A stretch of 53,499 nt of DNA, filler included, from Asterionella formosa (lineage: Eukaryota), in NCBI GenBank assembly GCA_002256025.1. It is 4 parts of 4 records of this genome, joined end to end, with 100 filler letters (N's around TTAATTAATTAA, not from the genome) between each part and the next. Parts side by side here need not be neighbours in the genome. Positions count along the whole stretch, not along the records: positions 40,221 to 53,499 come from NKIB01006823.1; 3 more parts are not named here. One strand, given 5' to 3'. Each line of letters opens with the position of its first letter. Position 1 is the first letter of the stretch. Shown piece by piece: positions 3,787-49,959 of this stretch. Position numbers and translations under genes: made by a program. The notes under the pieces were generated by a model that was given only the letters and a program-made list of their open reading frames with translations, did no database searches and had not been told where the DNA came from.

Positions 3787-4116
3787 ATGATGAGGCCTTT
3801 TGTAAACGACAACAAGGCAAGGTCACGTGATGCTTCTACTACAGCTTCTAGTCTGTTTTCTACGGCTGCTGCTGCTGCTACTACTACTACAACTTCTACC
3901 AGCAGTCCACTCGTCCCCGTCAAGACGACCATGGAACACTTCTCCTCTATTCATAACAATTGGAATGGAGGACCATTTCGTCTTCCTCCTCCTCCACAAA
4001 TGGTGATTGTGGATGATGATGATGATGATGATAATGATAATGGCGAAGATAACAACGCTATCTTATTATCAGAAAAGAAGGAGAAAGTAACTCCCCTCGT
4101 AATTGCGCCGCCAGTG

Positions 4117-4149
<33 letters not shown>

Positions 4150-4596
4150 TCAGAGAACATGTCAGATCCAGCTCAAGAAGAAGACATGGATCATGATGGT
4201 TTGAATCTAGAATCCATTTTAGAACAAGTTATGGAAATCTTTCCTGAAGCTGACTTGGAAACAACAAGAGCCATGTTACTTCGGGCATCGTTGGAAAACG
4301 TCATGAATGAATTGGCTGAAGTATCATTTGGTGCATGGGGTGAAGTTGATAGTATTTGTGATGAGCGACGACAACGAAGACGTCGTTCTGGATCGATATG
4401 TTCTTCCATTGATAGTAGTATTGGTGATGATGATGATGACGATGACATCAGTACGTCTGATGCTGACCTTCAAGTTAAGTTGGAACAAGTCATGGAAATC
4501 TTTCCAAATGTTTCTATCAATCGGAGTGAAGAGCTATTGAAACGAAATTCTATATCCACTGTATTAGTGATTTTGGCGTCGGAAGCTGAATATTGA
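3787..4596 (+). CDS. Low-complexity protein with two CUE-like (ubiquitin-binding) repeats
   Basis: First ATG at 3787. Two copies of LEQVMEIFP followed by helices ending in hydrophobic residues, resembling the CUE 'MFP...LL' pattern. Poly-T, poly-D and poly-A tracts come from trinucleotide repeats. Confidence 0.7.
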
Positions 4597-4860
4597 GTTA
4601 TCATGTTGAGTCTACACGTCAACAGTTTTAGTACATATTATTATTTATACCTGGTGAAACATATGCCCTCTGTGCTAGTTTTTAATTTATAGAAATGCAC
4701 GTCAACTTGCTGGATGTTGATGACAAGTCGTTTGATTGTCCATTTGTTCACTGTTAGTACACTTTTGGTTGTTTTTCCTAATTATTACTCCTTTTGCTAT
4801 CTCGTGTAGATACAGCTACATATACTACATCTTATGGATTATGATAACTGCTTATGATAA

Positions 4861-13321: not shown

Positions 13322-13421
13322 NNNNNNNNNNNNNNNNNNNNNNNNNNNNNNNNNNNNNNNNNNNNTTAATTAATTAANNNNNNNNNNNNNNNNNNNNNNN
13401 NNNNNNNNNNNNNNNNNNNNN
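13322..13421. other. Artificial contig linker
   Basis: N44-TTAATTAATTAA-N44 (stops in all six frames). Confidence 0.98.
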
Positions 13422-14376: not shown

Positions 14377-15544
14377 CCGTATACTTCATTGTCCTGGACC
14401 CCCCAATGTACACTGCCGTGACTGAATTTGACTGATTTTACTTAAGGGGGGGGCCTAGGAAAAGCTTAAAAAGTGTAAGACAAATTTTATAAGAAGAATC
14501 AGAAGCAAAAATGATTACAGACTTATTTCCATTAGGCTTGGATATAATAGTTAAATAAATTAGTCGTGTAGAATAAAATGATGTCAAGAATGCACCAATA
14601 GATCCTAAATAATAGCTAAAATGACTAATTGAAGTATACTTAACATAAGCAGCCTCTAAAATTAAATCCTTTGAGTAAAATCCTGCCAAAAAAGGGAAGC
14701 CTGCCAATGCTGAAGAACCAACAACCATCATAAAATAAGTAAGAGGTATTCATTGTTTTAAACCACCCATTTTTCTAATGTCTTGTTCATCAGACACTGA
14801 ATGAATAACAGACCCAGCACCCAAAAAAGTAAAGCTTTAAAAAATGCATGGTTTGCTAAATGAAAAATACCTACAGAATAATTTGAAAGCCCACATGCAA
14901 AAATCATATAACCTGATTGACTACAGGTTGAATAAGCGATATTCTTTTTTAAATCATTTTGAACTGGGCCCAGGAAAATGAAGAGATTTCCCTTATAATG
15001 AAGCTAAGTAAATTTCTTTAGTTCTACAGGATAGCACACATTTTTCTAACATGTATTAATATGACAATTATTTCCGTGATGTGAAAAATGAGATTTCCGT
15101 GATGTGAAAAATGAGAGAGTTCTTCACCTCGCAAGAAAAACGCGACTTCATATTGCTATCGGCAATCTCAATTTTCGTTGTCATTTTTAATGTTATTACT
15201 TTACTTCTTTTACGATTGTATTTTCCATGTCGTTCTTAATACAGGCAGCAAGTAGCAAAGCGTCGTTCTCTATTTTCGTGGAGATAATTCGTATTTTCGT
15301 CATGGTCAAGGTTGCAACAACATGATGAAGGATTCTTCAGCTGCTCACAACCACTACCTGTCTTCTCTTGTGTTTTGTATGTACAAAAGAATCGTAAAAC
15401 CGTATCTAAATAATTAAATACTAGTGCCTACAAGGACAAAAAGAATTATAGCACGTTACTTTGTCTATGACAAGAAAATTATTGGGTGTTTGGTTCCACC
15501 ACGAGAAAATTGTACAGGGGGGTCCAGGACAATGAAGTATACTG
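14377..15544. mobile_element. Non-autonomous Tc1/mariner-type TIR element with TA target duplication, carrying a nad5 fragment
   Basis: TA|ccgtatacttcattgtcctggacccccc ... ggggggtccaggacaatgaagtatactg|TA; 26 bp perfect inverted match (14379-14404 / 15517-15542). Confidence 0.9.
14464..14965 (-). pseudogene. nad5: Nuclear copy of a mitochondrial NADH dehydrogenase subunit 5 fragment (NUMT)
   Basis: [15 protein letters not shown]...[12 protein letters not shown] / [20 protein letters not shown]...GFPFLAGFYSKDLILE. There is a 1-nt deletion in the T-run at ~14823-14828 and an in-frame TGA at ~14750. AT-rich codons. Confidence 0.95.
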
Positions 15545-26732: not shown

Positions 26733-26832
26733 NNNNNNNNNNNNNNNNNNNNNNNNNNNNNNNNNNNNNNNNNNNNTTAATTAATTAANNNNNNNNNNNN
26801 NNNNNNNNNNNNNNNNNNNNNNNNNNNNNNNN
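26733..26832. other. Artificial contig linker
   Basis: N44-TTAATTAATTAA-N44. Confidence 0.98.
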
Positions 26833-28559: not shown

Positions 28560-30060
28560 AATCAAATCTAAGCTAATAAATAACTTGTTTCACATCTTTT
28601 GCTTTAATTAATCATTTTATTGTTTTATTCGTCTTTGTAGTCGTTGTACAGCTACTGCGAAAGTGTCAAAACTTCTGATAGCATCGTCGTTTTGCACTGT
28701 GGATCTATAAATTTCATTTAAAAAAGCGCTATCGGCTATTTCATTTTCGTTGTCAATTTTAGAGTTATTACAACTGTTCTTTTACGACTGTATTTTCTGT
28801 ATCGTGTTTAATATATATGCATCCAATAGCAAAGCGTCGTTCTCATTTTTCATGGAGATATTTTTTAATTTTGTCATGGTCAAGGCTGAGACGGGTATGA
28901 TATAGCAGTTATATTGGGTACCACTAAGTTGCTACGTGTGATGACACTAGCATGAAAATATTTCAAATCCTAATTTATATAGAAACGTTCATTATTGGTG
29001 GTTTTCATCTCTTTGGCCGGAAAAGGAGAACGATTTTGAGTTTGGAGACGAGAATAAAGCAATGTAAGTTTTAATTTGATTTGTTGTACTGCTGGTGTGG
29101 TAGGGGACAACAACGAGACAGCAACTCCATCTTGACCATGACAAAATTAAGGAACTGAATATCTCCACGAAAATTTTCAATAAATCATTCCTATTTTGTA
29201 TGTATATCCAGCCTAAGCAACATAGACGAGCTAGTAATCGTTCAGTAATAAAAAAATTTTGCACCAATATTGACAGCAAAGATTGAAATTGCTGCTAGAA
29301 TTTGTTTTCGTCGTTTTTTCAGTTTAGAGGATACGAACAAAACGAGATATCTTTCAGTCTGCGGTGACTAGCTTGATAACTTCTATTCGATAATTATTTC
29401 TATCTTCTGTACCAATAGATGAAAAAACTTGAGCTATTGACATCTCGGAGAGGGCGCAACATCTCAAAATGCAAGAAAATACCTCAATCTATAATTTTGC
29501 ACAGACTGTCGTCTACATAATAATTCTAGTGGTTAATGTTTCTATAGAATCTTGAGCACGTCATTTTGAAGTTAAATATACTAGATACAAAGGCAGACAT
29601 ACATGTTTAACCTGCTTGCCGTTTACGCGACTAGAACAATTGGGACAACCTGCATATATGCATTTTTATTACTGGTATCAGTTTTATTTTGTTGTACATA
29701 TGCCCACCAGTATAGATATTACCAGCACCGGTATTTAATTTCCTACATAGCTAGTACATACTGGTAGCGGGTATGGTATACGGTTATGTACACCGGCATC
29801 TGGTTTTGTACTGCTGTATTAGGGGGACAATGAGACAACAGCAACTCCGTCTTGACCATGACGAAATTATTGGAATGAATATCTCCACGAAAATTTTCAA
29901 AAAAACCATTCCTATTTGGCACATATATCTAGCCTAACATTGATAAGGTAATCGTTCAATAATAAAATTTTTTGCACCAATATTGACAACAAAAATTTAG
30001 AATTGACTAGCTTGATATCTTCTATTAGATAATTAATTATATCTTCAGTCTACAAATAGA
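28560..30060. repeat. Cluster of an abundant non-coding dispersed repeat in both orientations
   Basis: Motifs attttcgttgtca, gtggagata and gtcatggtcaagg: + copy ~28700-28890, - copies ~29080-29340 and ~29790-30010. Further copies near 15140-15360, 34720-35080, 46700-46903 and 49200-49460. Confidence 0.8.
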
Positions 30061-35461: not shown

Positions 35462-36586
35462 CTAGTGAATTTTCTTTACCTTGGCAAGCACTGCATCAGC
35501 GTCAAGATCCTCGAGAGTGTCAAAGACCGACATGGTCTTGCCTGTGGCAGTGTCACCATCAACAGAAACTTGAGCATCTTCGGCCCACTTCTTAATGGTC
35601 TCAGGGGTGACCTTGACGGCCAGCAGTCCCTTGCCGAAGTTGTCCGAAGCAAGATCAGCGCCAAGCCAGTTCATGCGCTCAGCCAACGCTTCAAAAGGAG
35701 AAGCAGAAGCATGCACACCATTGTCTCCGGTGTTCGGCTTGGACTTCAACCCGAGAGTTTTGTATTGGTCAAGGATAGCACGGCGGACGGATCCAACAGG
35801 AGCAACAGCTGGATTTGTAGCTCCCAGAACCTTGCCACGGAAATCTTGCCAGGTGAGGGAGTCGGCAGGCCACGAGACCGTGTACCACTGGATCTTGTCA
35901 CCTGGGGTAGTATACGCGGCTCTCATGTCCATGTAGAAACCGTTCATAATGTAGATTCCATCAACTTTCCCGCAGTAGAAGCCACCCCCGAATTTGATGA
36001 GATCCTTACCAGAGACCAGCTTGCTCCATTTTTCATTGAGTCCTGCTCCGTCGACACCAAGTTTCTTTGCGCCATCCATAGCATTGTATACCTTGCCCGA
36101 TGCAATAGCAACTTCCCACTTCTCGCCAAACATCTTCTCAAAGTCTTGCTTTCCCTTATCAGGTACATTGAGATCCTTCGGTTGAAGCTTGACCGCCTTT
36201 GAGGCAATGGCACCATAATGAGTATCAATATGCATGTTTTTATCGATCGTTTCAGCAAGCATTTCGCCCTTCCCAGTGATACGAATGCCAGCGTCCGCAA
36301 AAGCTTCTTCAACAAGGGCCTCGACCTTTCCGGGGATTCCCTTGCAAGCGTGAGGTTTAATAAAGACAAAGGCGCTGTTTGTTTTTCCAGAAAGCTGAGC
36401 CTGGAGGTCGTCAACCTTGGCACTCAAGGCAGCGCTCTTTTGATCGGCATCATAGTAGACATATCCGGCTCCAGCAAGTGCTGCAACCGCAAGAATAGTG
36501 CCGGCTCCTCCTCCGCCACTGGAAGCTTCTGACGAAAACTGGCGGGCAAAGCGATTGGAAGAAAGACGAAAGCTGCGGGAGAACAT
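35462..36586 (-). CDS. Atypical nucleoside diphosphate kinase-like protein with mitochondrial presequence and membrane anchor
   Basis: AFVFIKPHA, HY, FRGKVLGATNP..AP.GSVR and NGVHASAS (catalytic His) NDK motifs. MFSRSFRLSSNRFARQFSS presequence followed by TILAVAALAGAGYVYY. Confidence 0.9.
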   Translation of the reverse strand: MFSRSFRLSSNRFARQFSSEASSGGGGAGTILAVAALAGAGYVYYDADQKSAALSAKVDDLQAQLSGKTNSAFVFIKPHACKGIPGKVEALVEEAFADAGIRITGKGEMLAETIDKNMHIDTHYGAIASKAVKLQPKDLNVPDKGKQDFEKMFGEKWEVAIASGKVYNAMDGAKKLGVDGAGLNEKWSKLVSGKDLIKFGGGFYCGKVDGIYIMNGFYMDMRAAYTTPGDKIQWYTVSWPADSLTWQDFRGKVLGATNPAVAPVGSVRRAILDQYKTLGLKSKPNTGDNGVHASASPFEALAERMNWLGADLASDNFGKGLLAVKVTPETIKKWAEDAQVSVDGDTATGKTMSVFDTLEDLDADAVLAKVKKIH

Positions 36587-37377
36587 AATGTCTGTGGTGT
36601 AATATAGGCAAGGGGGGAGGAAATGGATCAAGTCAATAGCACTGCCGGTACCAGAAATAGCAAGTAAGCAATAGAAAAAGAAGATTGCCTTTACACTGTT
36701 GGCGATGAATCTTGGAAAACTACATACCGGTACCCCACTGCCGGTGCGTGATGGTGTATACAGTTACCACATACCGGTACATACTGTGCATAACAACTGT
36801 GGGTATATTCCCTCAGTGTACAGTAAACCGTAAACTTCATTGTCCTGCCCGCCCCCCCCCCCCAAGGTTGTGCTGGCCCCGTACATCTTTTTCGAGGTGG
36901 CACCAAACAAACAATTATTTTCTAGACATGGACAAAGTAACATGCTATCTTATATTTTTGTGGCGGAAATTAAGTGACGCTACCTGGTAGTACCCCAATT
37001 ATAAAGTGACGCTACCAATATAAAATACCGGTACAACCAGGACACACATTATACCTGTTACCAGTTATAATGTCAACAAGTAATACGTGGCTTAGATGAA
37101 CAAGATCAGCAGTGATCAATGGTTGCTGCAATGGGAAGCTACTTGGACTGAATGCATCCAATAATGGGTGCTCATGTGAGCAACATGAATGCTGTGGGAA
37201 GGTAGTCAAGTAGAATGATGTCATCAGGTTCAAGCTGGCTGTTGTAGAGTTTATATTGGGAAAGCCATTGGAGAGGATCAATGCTGTCCTCATCAAGGAT
37301 GGCACAGAACTTTGTACTGTTGGCTTTCTGGGAGGGAAGTTACTGCATTGCCTTCGCAAAGGCTATGCTACATCTAA

Positions 37378-40120: not shown

Positions 40121-40220
40121 NNNNNNNNNNNNNNNNNNNNNNNNNNNNNNNNNNNNNNNNNNNNTTAATTAATTAANNNNNNNNNNNNNNNNNNNNNNNN
40201 NNNNNNNNNNNNNNNNNNNN
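40121..40220. other. Artificial contig linker
   Basis: N44-TTAATTAATTAA-N44. Confidence 0.98.
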
Positions 40221-40221
40221 A

Positions 40222-43200
40222 CCAGGCACATGCAATACAGAGACTCTATGTGGCCAATGTGTGTGGGCCCGAAACGCATGCCAGGTAGAAACAAGGTGGC
40301 TTGGGTATACAGAAATTGGTCAGACTCATGTGGTCCGCACTGTTGGAGAAACACGACGTGCCCCAAGGATCGTGGCAGAGCGTGAGGCCGAGCTGCTCTT
40401 CTTCCCAACTTTGGATGCCCAGCCAACAGTGTCGCCGTCCTCAGCTCCCACTGCAACAGTGAATCATGTCTTTGGTCTTGAGTTGATTGGAAATTTTACT
40501 GTTGATCTTGTTAACGCTTCCAATGTTTGGGGCAGTGGATACCCAAGCAACAAAACAAGATTGATCGAACCATCAACAGAGTATTACATTCCTGGAAATA
40601 TCAACGATATCGACATAAATTTTGATTTGCAGGCTCAGCGCACCATCCAAGGTGTTGCGGTCCAAATTTGGTACTACAGTGAAGTTCAGTCGATCCAGAT
40701 TGGCGTGCGCCGTGATGGCGGCACTACTTGGACGTTGTTTAATGGAGGATCCGCAACAAGCCTCAATCAACGAGTCACCATTACTATCCCCAAAACTGCT
40801 GCCCGATATGTATCGATCCGTTTGCGGGGAGGAACTTATAATGGTGTTTTTGACACAACGAAAAAGTGGGGACTTCGTCAGGTTCAGATCAGCGGAAGTT
40901 TGGATGGCTCGTTGGTCGACACAGGAACAAACACCACACGCAGTCCAAGTGCCAAGCTTGCATTCATCCCAAGCCAGTCAGCCATTGTCATGCTTGATGT
41001 TTTCAACCAGTCGGGGGCGCTGCTAGGGACAATGCCAGTTCGCAACCAAACATTGCAACGCCCGCTCTTGGAACAGGCTTTGGTCACATCGAAACTTGAT
41101 CCTTACAGCTTGATTGATATGTGGAGTGTCACGATTCCTTGGCGTTGGATGAAGGAAGGAAACCAACTTCGCATTTCTGTCAATCATACACTAAGTGGCA
41201 AAATTCTCACTCACTCGCACACCCTGAGCTATTTGGTGCAATGGGGAGAGCACACCTTCATCCGAACCAAGGTGGCAATCTTCGGCAATTCCACTGACAT
41301 TGCTAGTCTTAACTCATTTACTTATGGTGCCTCAAAGCTGGCAACAGGTATGTTTGCAGCAATGCCGTTGGCGACACTTAGCTGGGTTGACTCTGAGTTG
41401 TGGCACTTGCCATACCTAGTTGTCGCTACAGCAAATGGGGCAAGGCTTGTCCGCAGTGAAGCAGAGAGGAGGCAGGCATTCATTGATGCTGGACAAACAG
41501 ATTATGGAACTGAGCCACAGTGGGAAGTGTTAAAGAATCAATTAACCTTTCGCCATTCCATGGCCAACGTAGGGAGGGGCTTTGCTGAAACAACTGATGA
41601 CGAATACACTCCATACGCTTCGCAAACTTCAATCTTTATGGGTTGGTCTCTTACTGGTCAGCAAGCTGACGGAAGCGTTTATTGGGATTACTTGGGTTAT
41701 TGGGATGGGTGGACTGCTGCCGCTTGGACAGGCTGGTGTGCCATGGCACCAGGTGATGAGTGCGGCAACGCGTTAATTCATGAACTTGGCCATTCACAGA
41801 CAATGGAACACTTTACGTCTGGTACATCAGTGAGCTGGGGTATTGCTGATGAGTATCCAATGGACGGAGTCAATACAAAATTCAATCCCTGGGGATATGA
41901 TACAGTCTCCCGTAGATTTCGTACGTGGTACAACCCATATACCAACGATGGGAAGAATGATCCAATGAATGGCGGAGAAGACCCAAACTCCGAGACTTGT
42001 TTCCCACAGTACACTGCCTACCACGCCCAGAAGTCTCAAAACTGGGCAAAAGCATCACCAGTGCTTCTGTCATCAAAGACTTCCGGGGTACCAAGTGATG
42101 GAGCATACTTGTTCAATGAAGCAACTCGCAACTACGACAAGGTAACAGATGCTCAAGTTGTTTCTCTTGTTGATAGCTATGCTATGCCACCTGTAAAGGT
42201 CGGTGTTCCCGTTCTCACATTTATTGGAACACTGGGAAAATTGTTGGAAACTTGCCAAATCTACCCTCCAGTGCGCTCCAGTGCTGGGAATACATTCCGA
42301 TTCCCGGATCCATTTGATCTTACTCTTGTGGCTTCCCTGTTCAGTGGTGCAAGGTACTATGTTGAAGTCACCTATGCCACTGGAACCAAAATGAAAGGTT
42401 TAGTTGCTGTGCCAGACCTTAGTAGCTCCACTGCTACTCGTTTCTTTTCCTTCAATATTGCGATTGCTGATCAACCCACCAAAGTTGACTTGTATCGCTA
42501 CAATTCAGTTTCGTATCCTAACATTGTGTCTACCAGTGCTACAACTCTTCTTTTCACTCGCACCATCAACCTTCCTGCTCAGCCTTTGGATGGTATTGCT
42601 GCAACGGTGAAGGTTGGTCGTGGATGGCTTGGTGAATCAGGAGACATTGATATCTCCAAAATCTGTATCTCCGATCTAGACTGTGAGGAAAAGTCCACTG
42701 TCTTGAAGTGGCGTGGAACTGAATCCATTTCTTATTCTTCGGTAGTCCCATCATCAAATCTTGGTAACAGGAGTGCCTTTAATATTACAGTGACTCGTAT
42801 GGAAGACAAGAGCACATCAGTACTTACTGTTTTGGCGACACGCTTCACCAACGAGATTTCTGCTTCACTGCTCAGCTCTCTCCCATCACCAGTTGCCGCT
42901 GACTCCACTCATGGAGTGAAGTTTTGGATCCCATATGATCTCAACTCTGCATTTTCATTCGGGACCTACAAGGCCCTCATTCCTGCTGTGACAGCATCCA
43001 ACCCAGATGGCAGTCGCTTTGCCGACCTTCGAGTCAATTTAAATCTATATATTCCCCAGGTTACTGCCACTGTGAATTTGACAAAAGGGTACACTAGCCC
43101 AGGTTACACTGCACCTGGTTCATCGGCTTACTTCTTGGTCACAGACCCATCAGTCGGACCCACGACTAGTGAGTGGTGGGGTGGTGATTCAACAAGTCTT

Positions 43201-43518
43201 TCAGTCCCTCTGATTTCCTTCAATTGCAACAAAAAGATGGTGAAGGCTTCAATCATTGGAACTCAGACATCTTGTTTTTGGGGAGGTGCAATTTGGCAAA
43301 TGAATGCAGGACGAAGCGCCGATAGCTGCGCACACTTTTTGATGCTCACGTTGGCCTCCTCAAGTTTAAATACATGGATGATTGATCCAACCTTAAAAGG
43401 GTGTAAGTTTGAGACGCACCCAATAAACCCAATTCAAGTCAATGCTCATCGTTGGCATGATCCCAATGGTGATGCAGTGATTGGCCGTATGGTCCTCAAG
43501 ATGGTTTCACAGCTTTAA
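40222..43518 (+). CDS. Peptidase M66 family (StcE/TagA/dictomallein-like) zinc metalloprotease, 5'-truncated
   Basis: Frame is open back to the linker. Motifs: GQTHVV, PRIVAEREAELLFFP, WSVTIPWRWMKEG, HELGHSQTMEH, PWGYD...FRTW, DPMNGGE (Met-turn), FPQYTAYHAQKSQ. About 1098 codons with no intron. Confidence 0.9.
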   Translation, partial: PGTCNTETLCGQCVWARNACQVETRWLGYTEIGQTHVVRTVGETRRAPRIVAEREAELLFFPTLDAQPTVSPSSAPTATVNHVFGLELIGNFTVDLVNASNVWGSGYPSNKTRLIEPSTEYYIPGNINDIDINFDLQAQRTIQGVAVQIWYYSEVQSIQIGVRRDGGTTWTLFNGGSATSLNQRVTITIPKTAARYVSIRLRGGTYNGVFDTTKKWGLRQVQISGSLDGSLVDTGTNTTRSPSAKLAFIPSQSAIVMLDVFNQSGALLGTMPVRNQTLQRPLLEQALVTSKLDPYSLIDMWSVTIPWRWMKEGNQLRISVNHTLSGKILTHSHTLSYLVQWGEHTFIRTKVAIFGNSTDIASLNSFTYGASKLATGMFAAMPLATLSWVDSELWHLPYLVVATANGARLVRSEAERRQAFIDAGQTDYGTEPQWEVLKNQLTFRHSMANVGRGFAETTDDEYTPYASQTSIFMGWSLTGQQADGSVYWDYLGYWDGWTAAAWTGWCAMAPGDECGNALIHELGHSQTMEHFTSGTSVSWGIADEYPMDGVNTKFNPWGYDTVSRRFRTWYNPYTNDGKNDPMNGGEDPNSETCFPQYTAYHAQKSQNWAKASPVLLSSKTSGVPSDGAYLFNEATRNYDKVTDAQVVSLVDSYAMPPVKVGVPVLTFIGTLGKLLETCQIYPPVRSSAGNTFRFPDPFDLTLVASLFSGARYYVEVTYATGTKMKGLVAVPDLSSSTATRFFSFNIAIADQPTKVDLYRYNSVSYPNIVSTSATTLLFTRTINLPAQPLDGIAATVKVGRGWLGESGDIDISKICISDLDCEEKSTVLKWRGTESISYSSVVPSSNLGNRSAFNITVTRMEDKSTSVLTVLATRFTNEISASLLSSLPSPVAADSTHGVKFWIPYDLNSAFSFGTYKALIPAVTASNPDGSRFADLRVNLNLYIPQVTATVNLTKGYTSPGYTAPGSSAYFLVTDPSVGPTTSEWWGGDSTSLSVPLISFNCNKKMVKASIIGTQTSCFWGGAIWQMNAGRSADSCAHFLMLTLASSSLNTWMIDPTLKGCKFETHPINPIQVNAHRWHDPNGDAVIGRMVLKMVSQL

Positions 43519-45430: not shown

Positions 45431-46922
45431 TCTTGTTGGAAGTGATGCGCCAATAGAAATAGAAACCCCTCCTTGTAGTGCTCATGACGCTTTTTGTTCG
45501 CTCCTTTCTTGATCAATTTCCCATCGATCCGTACATTTCCACACATTTTTATATGCGATGCCAGTCTATACGATTAAGTTATTGAGTTGATAGTGCAAGG
45601 ACAAAAGTCGATGAAGATATTCATTAATAACATTTGCTATGCAGTGCATCGAAAAAATCAGACAACTAGCTAGAAGCAACTAGCAACTACAATGAGCAAG
45701 GCATACGCTTCATAACACCATTCTTCACAACCCGAGAAAAAATAATTCACTAGAATAATAAAGGAATGATGTTCAACTTAATCAATATCTGGTGGTTCTG
45801 TCCTGGACTGGGAGCAATTTTATTCCGGAAAAACAGTAACTTTCCATCCTCAACCATTCCTGTTAAAAATAATTTATTTTTTGAAAACGAAAACAGTAAG
45901 CAATACAATACCTCTTGTTGAACTTACTTATAAAACCCTTTCTGATAGATTTTGAAACAACTTCTTTTTATCAGACATAATTTGTTGGATGTCGGACTTA
46001 TAAGTGAACGAGAATCATTCGAACGGCCACTCCATGTCAGTACCTGCTGAGTGATGGTAAATGATTACGAACAGCACTGCTTAGCAATACTTTCTGGTTC
46101 CCTAATTTCCAAATGATAATACCCAGTGACGAATTTAACTTTTGGAACCACTCTGATCCAGATCGCCAGAAGGTTTGTCCAATTTTTGCACCGGCCAATT
46201 CCACATACTCAAATTATGAACCGGTTGTTTTCAGCTGCTAATTCACGTAGGCGCCTGATTTCCTGTGCACTCTCAGAAAAAAGGATTAGGAGTTTATATC
46301 TTTCTTTTTCAGCCATTTGCCTTTCACATTCGTCCCCTTCATCATAATCCTCAAGTTGATGATCAGTCCATTATCATTATTGCACAAACGTTTTTCCAAA
46401 TGCACATTGGTTTTTATGGGAATTAGTTTTTCTTCAAGAGATGCAAATTTTCTAGTCGTGTGAAGAATAAGCAGTGTATTTTTGAAAGTCTATATTCCAT
46501 AGAATTATAAGCCACGACAATTAGTATTTACATGATAGTCAGTCCACAATTATACCTTGAGGTATTTTCTCACATTTTGAGATGTTGTGCCCTCTCCAAG
46601 ATTTCTATTTCTCAAGTTTTCTCGTCTATTTGTACAAAAGATAGAATTTATTTTCAAGAAGAAGATATTAAGCTAAGTCATTGTGGAATCAACGATCTCT
46701 CTTTTTTGTTTGTATCCTCAAAACTGAGCAAATAACGATGAAAACAAATTCTAGCAGCAATTTCAAATTTTTGCTGTCAGTATTAGTGCGAAATTTTAAT
46801 TATTGAAAAATTATCTTGCCTATGTTAGGCTAGATACATGGGCGAAATAGGAATTGTTCATCATGAATATTGGTGGAGATATTCAATGCAATAACTTTGT
46901 CATCGCTCATCAATGTAGGGGC

Positions 46923-47136
46923 AGAGTTGCTGAAGGCAATACACGCCCAAGGTGGTCTCTTGCCTGCGAGTATACATGTGTTTGGGTCTGGGTGGTGCGA
47001 GTAGGTTGACTGTACGAGTGGCGCCCCCGGTGCTGCGAGAAGGCCACCCTACGAGTGCCATCCCAGCCGAGTACACATGTATGCGAGAAGGCATGTAGCC
47101 GCCGAGAAGGGTATCGTTGAGGCAATACCCGCTCTA
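46923..47136 (+). other. Long GC-rich rod-like hairpin with periodic CGAG/CGAG internal mismatches
   Basis: Arms pair symmetrically about ~47027 (e.g. atacatgtgt/acacatgtat, gtagg/cctac, tgcct/aggca); CGAG motifs face each other. Confidence 0.85.
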
Positions 47137-47903
47137 GCTATCGTCGCGTCATTTGCCTACCTACTGCCCACAAATAAAGCATAAATGTTAATTTTAGCTT
47201 ACTTTTTCCCATTATACAAAGTATATTCCGTATATTTCCAAGCTACGTAAAAATACTCAGCTAGAGGGAGTCGATAGTGCAGGAGCAGCCTGGCGATCAC
47301 ACTTGCTCAGAATGGAATGATCAGCCAGGGTTGTTTGGTGGGAGGAATGACTGTGGCATAAAGACCGCTACTACTAGTAGTGTCAGGCTACTTCAGCAAT
47401 GTGAATGGTTGCAGCAACCAGATCATCTACGCTACATAGCGATGCAGCTACAATTGTTCTCCGCTTTTTTTCTTCTCATTTCGCTCTTTGATTCTTGTTT
47501 GGTAATAGAAAGTCAATCTTGCCGTGAAATTACAACGATGTCACAATGCATACGTACTTCTCCATTGAAACTCCTTTTTTTTACTTCATTTCTGACCCAT
47601 TTTTTTTTCTATTTCTTATTTGATGCTACTTGTTACATCGCATTTCTTACTTTGGTTGCTCCAAACATCATGTTCAATTTTCATTGTTGTTGCATGTTGT
47701 TACACTCATTCTCGTGTGTTTTATGCTTGTTGTAGTACCCTTTTATGTATTTTACCGTTATTCTGGCTGTCATGCTAAAATCGGCAATTTTAATGCCGAA
47801 AAATTCGACGTGCCCCATATTGCCACTAAATAAATATTACTTAGAGCCTAAAATTTACTTACAAGTTCCCAAATGGCAAGTTGATAGCTAGAGCGGGAAT
47901 TGC
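47122..47903. mobile_element. Putative non-autonomous element bounded by ~34-bp imperfect inverted repeats
   Basis: cccgctctagctatc (47128-47142) / gatagctagagcggg (47883-47897) are perfect reverse complements, extendable on both sides. Confidence 0.6.
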
Positions 47904-49959
47904 TGTCTTGCTCATCGTCCCCATATCACAGCAGTACAAAATCAAATATATGTCCTGGTAGTAAAATGTTGCCAAACATATAAAATATATTTGTGTATAT
48001 AATAGTATAATTTGATCTGAGTTGGTGTGTATTGTCAGAGAGGACCTTGTGGGAAGCAACCACATCCATGTGGTGATACTGGTAGTTGACTCCTTGAGAA
48101 AAAAGTCCCAAAATTTTCTTCAAAAGATAAAAAAGAAAAATTATAATAAAGATTATAATTTTCTTTAAAAGATAGAGAAAGAAAATTTTTTGAAGGAGAT
48201 TTATGATTTTTTGGTGGCTGGTGAAAAGTTGTGTTGGCGTCCATGTGCCAAGGGGGGGGGATGCCTGTAAGGCGTACTTAAAAATTTATTTGCAATTACA
48301 GTACCGGTATACCAGTATTACTTGTGAAAATCAACCCAAGTTGTATTTTTCTGTAGGCCTAAAGTATCGTTCTACTGCGGATGGTAAATACCTTGACGGT
48401 ATTTTTCCGTACTTGATCACGAGAAAATACAGTATTGTACAACAAAGAAAAATCAACCCGGTTGCATTGACGGTTGATTTAGTACTCCCTTTTTGGTTGA
48501 AGAATCAACTCTGGTTAGTCGTAGAAAGTCTGGGATGTGCGTGATGATGCATATAAATAAGTTATGCACCTGAAGATGGTGATACCAGGTACCCGGTACC
48601 TGGCACTCCGCTTACCGGCAAGTTGCGGTAATTTTGATATACGAGCAGTATCCATACATTAGTGCTACCTACATACGTCATCGTGCTGGCAATAGTGATT
48701 CCATCATGTGTATCTCTTTTGAATTTTCATTTAATAAACCACCCGACCGCCTGGTTGTTTGGAATTGACTGTAACTTTAATCTGATTTAGCCTACAATAA
48801 TGAGACCTATCTTTTAACTTATTCTGTCAGTTGGTACGCACCATAGCTAGGATTTGCATTATATTTGACCATTTTGATTAGAGTATCAATTTTCCTTAGT
48901 GTGTGATGTCATCATTTCAACCCAAATGCCATCACAGCCGCATACCTACATAACACGCACTGTAGTTAATGAGCGATACAACACACCGGTAAACACAAGG
49001 TGAAGTAAGCAATGTATTGCCCATGAAACATGCAATATATCATACACCTTTTGATGGATTCATGTACAGGGCACCCGAGGTAGCCTACATAGGCACTAGA
49101 ATGTAATTATTTCGCTTAGATTATGCTTTTTCTCTATATAAAACTCTACGGTGTAGTCATTATGAACGGCTGGAGAGCGAATATTGCAAAATGTTGTCTC
49201 AGCCTTGACCATGACAAAGATAAAAAATAACTTACTGAAAAATTAGAACGACAATATTTGGTATGTACAATAACGACATCATCGACAATACAATCAAAAC
49301 CATTATGCTAATTACACTGATATTGACAACGAAAATTGAAGCCGCTGATGGCACATTTTTTCACGTAAATCAGTGATGCACAATTTTTAAAACAACATGT
49401 TACGAGGAGATTTGACACTTTACAGTAACTACACAACAAATAAGACTACGACTACGTCGATAACATGAAGAATTGGAGCAACAGATTTGAAATAGGTTTT
49501 TTTCCTACTGAGAATTGATTGATTACGAATTGGCAAGTTGTATAGTGGTGAAAGCTGACAAATGTCAAGTATGCTGTCAAAACTACTAGTAATGCCCTAG
49601 TATAGTTAATATTTGGCAGCCCCTTCATGCAGCATACATGTGAGTGCTTACAAGAGTACAGAACATCATTATGAAATAATGCTACACATAGCGATCCACT
49701 GTTATTACCAGCATGTTGTTGACATAGTTCTGGTAGACTAATGCTGGTAAATCTCTTTCCTTCTGTACTAGCGAGACATGATGCAGTCATGTTCAAATGA
49801 ATTAAGGACTGTGCATGCTTGTCTACAAAGTTTAAGAATAATATTCTTTAAAGTTGTCTTGATTAAAGTAGATTCCATCATTTGCTTAAACCTAAATAGT
49901 CTTTCAGTACTTTAACCCAAAATAAAACGATTTGGAAATTAAAATGGCTGTTGATCCAG

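Follow-up and report, generated by a model that had tools for sequence, protein, structure and literature searches.

A G.A-laddered terminal hairpin and a candidate single-strand recombination site in a Crypton-like transposon family of the diatom Asterionella formosa

Results and discussion

The locus and its features

The stretch analysed here (the window) comprises 53,499 nucleotides of Asterionella formosa DNA (GenBank assembly GCA_002256025.1), in which several contigs are joined by runs of N with a TTAATTAATTAA linker at 13322-13421, 26733-26832 and 40121-40220. Its last contig (G000:C6823, NKIB01006823.1) bears a long GC-rich hairpin that a preliminary description had placed at 46923..47136, and the mobile element to which this hairpin belongs. 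We assign the element to a family of Crypton/DUF3504-like tyrosine-recombinase (YR) DNA transposons, in which the hairpin forms the left end. The features of this copy and its insertion site, in window coordinates, are the following:

46928..47903, + strand: complete copy, 976 bp long and non-autonomous, of a DNA transposon of the tyrosine-recombinase type, lacking internal sequence that the common form of ~2.1 kb has (end mapping, copy comparison)
46928..47124, + strand: terminal rod hairpin that makes up the element's left end and is interrupted by six facing G.A/G.A loops (folding, family majority, covariation)
46928..46942, + strand: left terminus, TGC and then the top strand of the predicted recombination site, with the 5-nt spacer TGAAG and the half-site GCAAT (13-mer matches)
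46948..47106, + strand: outer rung, a decayed CAAG at 46948 opposite CGAG at 47103, CGAG in the family majority
46967..47087, + strand: inner rungs, CGAG 46967/47084, decayed TGGG 46983/CGAG 47068, CGAG 46998/47052 and CGAG 47015/47036, all CGAG in the family majority
47111..47142, + strand: splint with the 4-nt spacer TGAG, its left half pairing with the left terminus and its right half with the right terminus (inverted match, junction-splint duplex)
47239..47240, no strand: internal-deletion joint of this copy (comparison with copy L043)
47883..47903, + strand: right terminus, which has TGC as its last bases and can pair with the splint's right half (309 exact matches of a 17-mer)
47904, + strand: first target base past TGC, T in this copy and T or C in 64 of 64 non-self flanks
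46494..46927, + strand: older repeat that hosts the insertion and resumes past 47903

A rod hairpin with facing CGAG motifs

The motifs reported earlier are all present in the sequence at the positions given: CGAG at 46967, 46998, 47015, 47036, 47052, 47068, 47084 and 47103, together with TGAA 46931, TGAG 47118, CAAG 46948 and TGGG 46983, arranged about a fold centre at 47027 with spacings of 15-19 nt. The extent given for the hairpin holds only in part, as the rod itself is real but runs from 46928 to 47124, and the bases 47125-47136 lie in a splint complementary to the other end of the element. There are 8 CGAG words in the window rod against 1.16 expected from dinucleotide shuffles (0 of 5000 reach 8) and 0 CTCG, while the majority sequence of 39 full-length rods has ten against 1.85 expected (0 of 5000 shuffles) and folds into a single rod of -113 kcal/mol with six 2x2 loops. 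Since this majority reads CGAG at both places, the two imperfect motifs CAAG 46948 and TGGG 46983 represent decay in the window copy. Variation among the 39 close copies was considered as a source of covariation, and set aside as neutral decay with an excess at CpG.

Folding was compared with shuffled sequence over 46915-47145, each strand as RNA and as DNA with 200 shuffles apiece. As RNA, the + strand reaches -108 kcal/mol (z -5.5; 0/200 shuffles as good) and the - strand -84.6 kcal/mol (z -3.1; 1/200), and with DNA parameters the values are z -2.2 (5/200) and z -1.0 (31/200), respectively. The stability claimed for the hairpin is therefore borne out, most clearly for the + strand as RNA. 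Rfam 15 at gathering thresholds gave no match in the window, where a match would have counted against the earlier account.

A family of several hundred copies

A genome search for the left end, of the kind that the preliminary description had proposed, returned 598 candidates, of which 40 were scored (91-100% identity), and reveals a repeat family of several hundred copies. Similarity begins at the same base, window 46928, in 30/30 loci with unrelated flanks, and the right end maps to 47903 (660 candidates in the right-end search). Exact patterns recover 309 (17-mer) and 59 right ends, representing two subfamilies. The common form is non-coding and ~2.1 kb long; the 976-bp window copy, of which the rod makes up the first 197 bases, aligns to bases 1-312 and 1440-2066 of a 2066-bp copy.

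The 13-mer of the left terminus has 398 exact matches against 0 for a control pattern; part of these lie in an unrelated open reading frame (ORF) of long-terminal-repeat (LTR) type and were set aside. This LTR-retrotransposon-like ORF with an aspartyl protease is seen at L106 8066-9661 (- strand) and also in L083, L085, L088, L091 and L101, and its 13-mer is either coincidental or the mark of an old target.

TGC stands on either side of the element, whereas only one TGC is present at the corresponding site in two empty paralogues of its target repeat in the window (29138-29550 and 29798-30005, - strand). A classical target-site duplication was sought at the element flanks and not found. The dispersed repeat family into which the element inserted occupies window 29103-30005, 46494-46927, 49179-49385 and 15171-15335.

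A tyrosine recombinase between the ends

The first trace of an enzyme was a reading frame with recombinase-like motifs in the deletion copy L112, a piece of which has 59 matches in the genome. The YR gene lies between both ends in L112, L138, L163 and L164 and after the left end in L156 and L174; the longest YR-bearing copy spans ~4.25 kb, and the long copies encode the gene on the strand that carries the rod rungs (+). Its translations show motifs of catalytic type (R in FGVRG, K, HxxR, H and Y), with R/H/R/H/Y invariant in comparison with full-length homologues, and an intron that is kept in genomic copies splits the gene between the R/K and HxxR/H/Y motifs.

Several comparisons point to a DUF3504-like recombinase. 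The Pfam match to DUF3504 lies below the cut-off (E about 0.001), the first Atlas match is KIAA1958/DUF3504 (0.97), and 246 relatives were found at E up to 0.001. One homologue bears the name Psemu1, a diatom genome label. The modelled homologue from the metagenome locus L228 (predicted local distance difference test, pLDDT, 86) gave Foldseek matches to QRICH1 and Cre, and aligns with Cre over 275 residues (Z 15.1, root-mean-square deviation 4.1), against Z 5.5-6.6 for protelomerases. A PDB sequence search gave nothing for one exon, and a profile retrieved only QRICH1 (E 0.41). The genome profile search with DUF3504 PF12012 had no match, as was also the case for its control, and a word-seeded search for longer homologues found none. 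With PF00589, three matches were obtained in the genome on contigs without element ends, two of them bacterial-looking integrases. No relative was detected in viral contigs by protein search, and a DNA pattern match in a viral contig was rejected as a chance match in a phage coding stretch.

The YR is the only protein recognised between the element ends. No reverse transcriptase family was detected in 47 of 69 ORFs (at least 75 aa, five loci), a search that left out the 22 ORFs of L159 and that may have overlooked small remnants, given the decay of the copies. Among the possibilities raised earlier, a single-stranded DNA end of a mobile element is supported. No support was obtained for a free-standing non-coding RNA, a viroid-like RNA or a retro-mobilised RNA, since the rod constitutes the invariant start (197 bases) of a repeat family, and the long members of this family have an intron-containing YR and no detectable reverse transcriptase.

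In addition, L162 (G000:C12347) holds a more divergent YR copy (67-74% DNA identity) whose right end is the same but which shows no rod over the length that was read.

A splint complementary to both termini and a target rule

The splint forms the 3' foot of the rod. Its two halves overlap on GCA at 47122-47124, and the inverted match with the far end covers 47122-47155 / 47870-47903. When both termini are paired to it, the folded junction is predicted to be a palindrome, ATTGC-spacer-GCAAT, with five spacer bases on the top strand and four on the bottom strand.

Target bases were counted after 14 of 78 right flanks had been removed as self-insertions; these right ends resemble full inverted repeats but are more plausibly insertions into the site of another copy. 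In the 64 non-self flanks that were left, TGC is followed by T in 34 and by C in 30, with A and G at 0 each, and position +7 is A in 49. On the left of TGC, T occupies -1 in 35/77 and a purine -2 in 55/77. These counts suggest that the target resembles the splint palindrome. The splint base opposite target +1 is G, which pairs with C and wobbles with T, and this G in the fold may be what sets the T/C rule. A double-stranded circle would present T/A there and should favour T, in contrast to the even T/C split.

Selection on the fold

A sister subfamily was found through the spaced-CGAG pattern, which has 556 matches against 210 for a control pattern, and its majority sequence was built from seven partial or whole copies. 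The sister rod differs at 40/196 positions and keeps CGAG at 9/10 places. It has 7 double compensatory pairs, against 1.36 expected (7 is reached in 2 of 10000 random placements), and 7 broken pairs, against 20.3 expected (0/10000 placements have as few). At one rod pair, T-A is found in 62 copies and A-T in 6, with 2 exceptions, which counts as one event.

A metagenome scan with an alignment of distant recombinases yielded six loci, five of which start too late to show a left end. The sole locus that reaches far upstream of its YR, L228, encodes an intact recombinase of 779 aa without an intron, only distantly related to that of the window family. Upstream of it lies a branched rod with no sequence relation to that of the window family, which folds far better than shuffled sequence (RNA: + strand z -21, - strand z -17; DNA: + strand z -15.9, - strand z -14.9) and has, on the sense strand, five loops of CGAG/CGAG and four variant ones (12 CGAG against 3.67 expected). 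L228 has also a palindromic site, with spacers of 6 versus 5 bases. The compensatory changes in the sister subfamily and the recurrence of the motif in an unrelated rod support the earlier proposal of selection on a folded single strand with strand polarity.

L228 further holds a direct repeat (1-97 / 4207-4298) that ends in a recombinase half-site and, over 405-594, 3897-4197 and 4460-4760, tandem repeats of 47 bp and of 100 bp, several additional half-sites that are common to L225-L227, and another structured segment rich in GC.

Rearrangement of the rod in genomic copies

Among 57 left ends picked by the exact 13-mer, the rod is full in 10, is missing its ~100 apical bases in ~17, shows inversions in ~9 and contains a patch of telomere repeats in 1. 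Colinearity breaks within 196 nt in 32/36 young left ends, against 6/21 past the splint. The rod is a hotspot of DNA rearrangement, in keeping with the formation of hairpins in DNA; some of the collapsed copies may be related by descent. The rungs could possibly serve as an array of protein-binding sites, as was also proposed earlier, but many copies lack the apical 100 bases.

The telomere-type patch is found in L093 (G000:C566:29494), where four TTAGGG repeats stand in place of the rod apex and an inverted duplication of the left end lies 430 bp away. Short insertions with the words ACCGGT or GTACCAG recur in copies and flanks at many loci (L082, L086, L292 and L303 among them), suggesting patterned repair or slippage.

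A possible single-strand recombination route

We lean, though not strongly, towards a model in which the + DNA strand folds into a recombination site in the manner of integrons and the G.A rungs restrict folding to that strand. The rod would fold when the + strand becomes single-stranded during replication, transcription or extrusion, and the splint would capture the right end and bring both TGC junctions side by side. The resulting palindrome with its mispaired spacer would be the YR site, at which one strand exchange would release or copy out a single-stranded circle. A second single exchange would link this circle to a double-stranded target that reads (R)(T)TGC-Y-N5-A, with the junction then resolved by replication, as at integron attC sites. 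Facing CGAG motifs would form sheared tandem G.A pairs on the + strand and T.C mismatches on the - strand, and so make the fold strand-specific and keep the duplex from being a perfect palindrome; they may also be recombinase-binding or spacing marks. The sheared G.A form is favoured by a pyrimidine-GA-purine context. Very strong stacking in DNA is attributed to tandem GA-AG in the published account (PMC8163305). A DNA rather than an RNA intermediate is preferred because introns are kept in genomic copies and the 47 ORFs gave no reverse transcriptase.

A number of observations weigh against this model. No circle, single strand or activity has been observed, and the sequencing runs consist of assembled contigs only, which reveal no strand, level or start of any RNA; runs with a low share were set aside as evidence. 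With DNA parameters the window copy folds weakly better than its shuffles (z -2.2) and the base of the rod misfolds, and a DNA fold of the whole copy leaves the splint unpaired with the right end. The advantage of CGAG/CGAG over CTCG/CTCG is 0.4 kcal/mol with DNA parameters and 2.1 with RNA parameters, so that the computed strand bias is larger for RNA. Every YR copy seen in the genome is broken, and the structure model is that of a homologue. The ends of L228 cannot be mapped from one contig, and the splint layout is not clearly repeated there. Pairing between splint and right end in the older subfamily has three A.G and one T.G, several left ends of the sister subfamily read TAC where the splint is still GCA, and the pyrimidine rule could be read by the protein instead. 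Finally, the right-end control for rod rearrangement is broken too (21/45), and the frequent absence of the apex suggests that most rungs are perhaps dispensable, or that collapse is recurrent.

Among the alternatives, a standard Crypton route appears unlikely but well worth keeping in view. The YR would here excise and integrate a double-stranded circle through the shared TGC, with the rod in a side role. It could, for example, provide the circle with a strand-specific origin or a hairpin that primes its copying, or be extruded as a cruciform to which the enzyme is recruited. TGC at both ends and one in empty sites would fit any YR circle, and such a circle is what the Crypton papers assume, as a proposal untested there, in the parts that describe the mechanism (PMC3212892, PMC13565253). 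The splinted single strand of DIRS elements is thought to become double-stranded before integration, according to the account given in PMC7192593. Head-to-tail junctions with a single TGC do exist (1/50 young and 6/29 older right ends), although they may be insertions into an existing end and are no proof of circles. The double-stranded circle leaves unexplained why the splint can pair with both ends, with spacers that differ by one base as they also do in L228, and why T and C are evenly split past TGC.

It seems improbable that the rod works instead as RNA, whether a folded element transcript serves the recombinase as scaffold or guide, whether it is a leader by which silencing is escaped, or whether the element moves through cDNA made by a reverse transcriptase in trans, as in a DIRS-like parasite. 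The G.A rungs stand on the sense strand in both the window family and L228, folding is much more significant as RNA than as DNA and differs more between the strands, the end layout is as in DIRS retroelements as these are outlined in PMC3266345, and contigs of two RNA libraries cover the rod, which is no demonstration of transcription. Against such a role stand the introns kept in genomic copies, the absence of a reverse transcriptase domain from the 47 ORFs, the lack of an Rfam match and the behaviour of the rod as a hotspot of DNA rearrangement; the splint, moreover, would need an RNA spanning both ends.

Still less credible is an HUH-mobilised element of Helitron2/Replitron type with the YR gene as captured cargo. 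The - strand layout (terminal inverted repeat, internal partner, end hairpin and no target duplication) does resemble Helitron2 as outlined in PMC3627910, but the YR is the only protein inside the ends, the distant YR element in L228 has the same kind of rod, and the target looks like a palindromic YR site. A genome search with the Helitron Rep profile PF14214 had no match, nor did its control. Least probable of all is a hairpin-ended linear replicon, with a telomere-like end made by a protelomerase-type enzyme or by rolling-hairpin replication: partial apex inversions (~9/57 left ends) and the YR fold of protelomerases (Z 5.5-6.6) are in its favour, but the left ends read include no whole-rod flip/flop isomers, the rod is at one end only, and Cre scores far higher (Z 15.1).

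Comparison with known systems

The likeness to Cryptons lies in the protein, as a YR with an R-H-R-Y tetrad is the sole one recognised, it is DUF3504-like, and no reverse transcriptase was found in the 47 ORFs. It extends to a short sequence common to both termini, one copy of which comes from the target, and to non-autonomous derivatives that outnumber the autonomous form, as outlined for Cryptons (PMC3212892, PMC13565253). The DUF3504 domain itself is traced to Crypton recombinases (PMC3212892). In contrast to the direct repeats of 4-6 bp given in these accounts, where some Cryptons have none, the present family has 3-bp TGC plus a pyrimidine. Inverted repeats are not described for Cryptons in these accounts, whereas here, in place of a classical terminal inverted repeat, there is an asymmetric inverted splint and a G.A-laddered rod of 197 nt. 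For CryptonS elements (oomycetes and a diatom), TATGG termini are given for most members (PMC3212892, PMC13565253), as opposed to TGC. PMC3212892 reports no conserved DNA features among Cryptons, and the word "hairpin" has 0 occurrences in it; our literature search, whose scope excluded Repbase Reports, most subscription papers and supplements, found no hairpin described at Crypton ends. According to the account in PMC13565253, the mode of movement of Cryptons has yet to be demonstrated by experiment.

DIRS1-like elements share the arrangement of two internal complementary regions that overlap on a 3-bp junction and pair with both termini, as well as a flanking trinucleotide and frequent insertion into their own copies, as far as these are set out in PMC3266345 and PMC7192593. 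They differ in that no reverse transcriptase, RNase H, Gag or methylase was detected here and introns are retained. Moreover, inverted terminal repeats of 66-316 bp are given for them, while the ends here share only a few bases, and the splint, being the rod's foot, is situated at the 5' end.

The model likens the element to integron attC sites and IntI, for which the published description (PMC3458562) gives an imperfect palindrome folded on one strand, an unpaired spacer and an extra base, one YR strand exchange and resolution by replication. Integron cassettes are bacterial, however, and the attC site lies inside one hairpin, whereas here the two ends of the element would come together to form it; that source does not list periodic tandem G.A rungs as an attC feature. 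The element is not a member of the attC sites but would work alike. CTX-phi integration is a comparable case. The model is further reminiscent of the strand-biased, circularising and integrative SE elements of Vibrio, which are bacterial, have four coding sequences and, in the relevant part of their description, come without mention of a terminal rod (PMC9345347).

Helitron2 and Replitrons end in asymmetric repeats accompanied by a hairpin, or in short direct repeats, and generally lack a target duplication, in the outlines given in PMC3627910 and PMC10288648. The enzyme of Helitron2 is an HUH RepHel rather than a YR, and its repeats of 8-15 bp are placed 20-30 bp from the end (PMC3627910), against a partner ~195 bp from the end in the same topology here. 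Replitrons encode a Y1 HUH Rep in place of a DUF3504/Cre-like protein, and went undetected in diatoms in the survey reported in PMC10288648. The element thus has the protein of a Crypton without the end structure described for Cryptons, and departs from DIRS, Helitron2 and Replitron elements in its enzyme.

Other features of the window

Three further stretches of the window attracted attention. An intronless ORF of 1098 aa at 40222-43518 (+ strand) matches Pfam Peptidase_M66 (E 6e-15), TagA (E 2e-11) and F5/8 type C domains, and represents a StcE/TagA-like metallopeptidase in an alga that may have come from bacteria. A fragment at 14438-14749 (- strand) resembles a membrane subunit of NADH dehydrogenases and antiporters (PF00361) and is perhaps an organellar insertion. 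The ORF of 433 aa at 35462-36763 (- strand), which has no Pfam match, has the look of a nucleoside-diphosphate-kinase-like protein.

Implications

Recombination through single-strand folding is known from bacterial integrons and has not been demonstrated for eukaryotic elements of this kind. That a widespread group of eukaryotic YR transposons moves as folded single-stranded DNA, with the rod selecting the strand, its foot splinting the ends into an integron-like site and one wobble setting the target rule, seems to us evenly poised between true and false. If it is true, eukaryotes possess single-strand recombination of the integron style, and this connects Cryptons with DIRS retroelements; the missing mechanism of Cryptons would be supplied, and the internal complementary region of DIRS elements would be recast as a site of single-strand recombination that predates their reverse transcriptase. 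Periodic sheared G.A pairs in DNA would, in addition, have a use that occurs in nature and is maintained by selection. The family provides a concrete substrate, a target rule and, in L228, an intact relative enzyme, so that the question of how Cryptons move can be tested with short oligonucleotides, and the periodic G.A ladder offers a structural signature for locating the ends of Cryptons, which have been described as hard to delimit.
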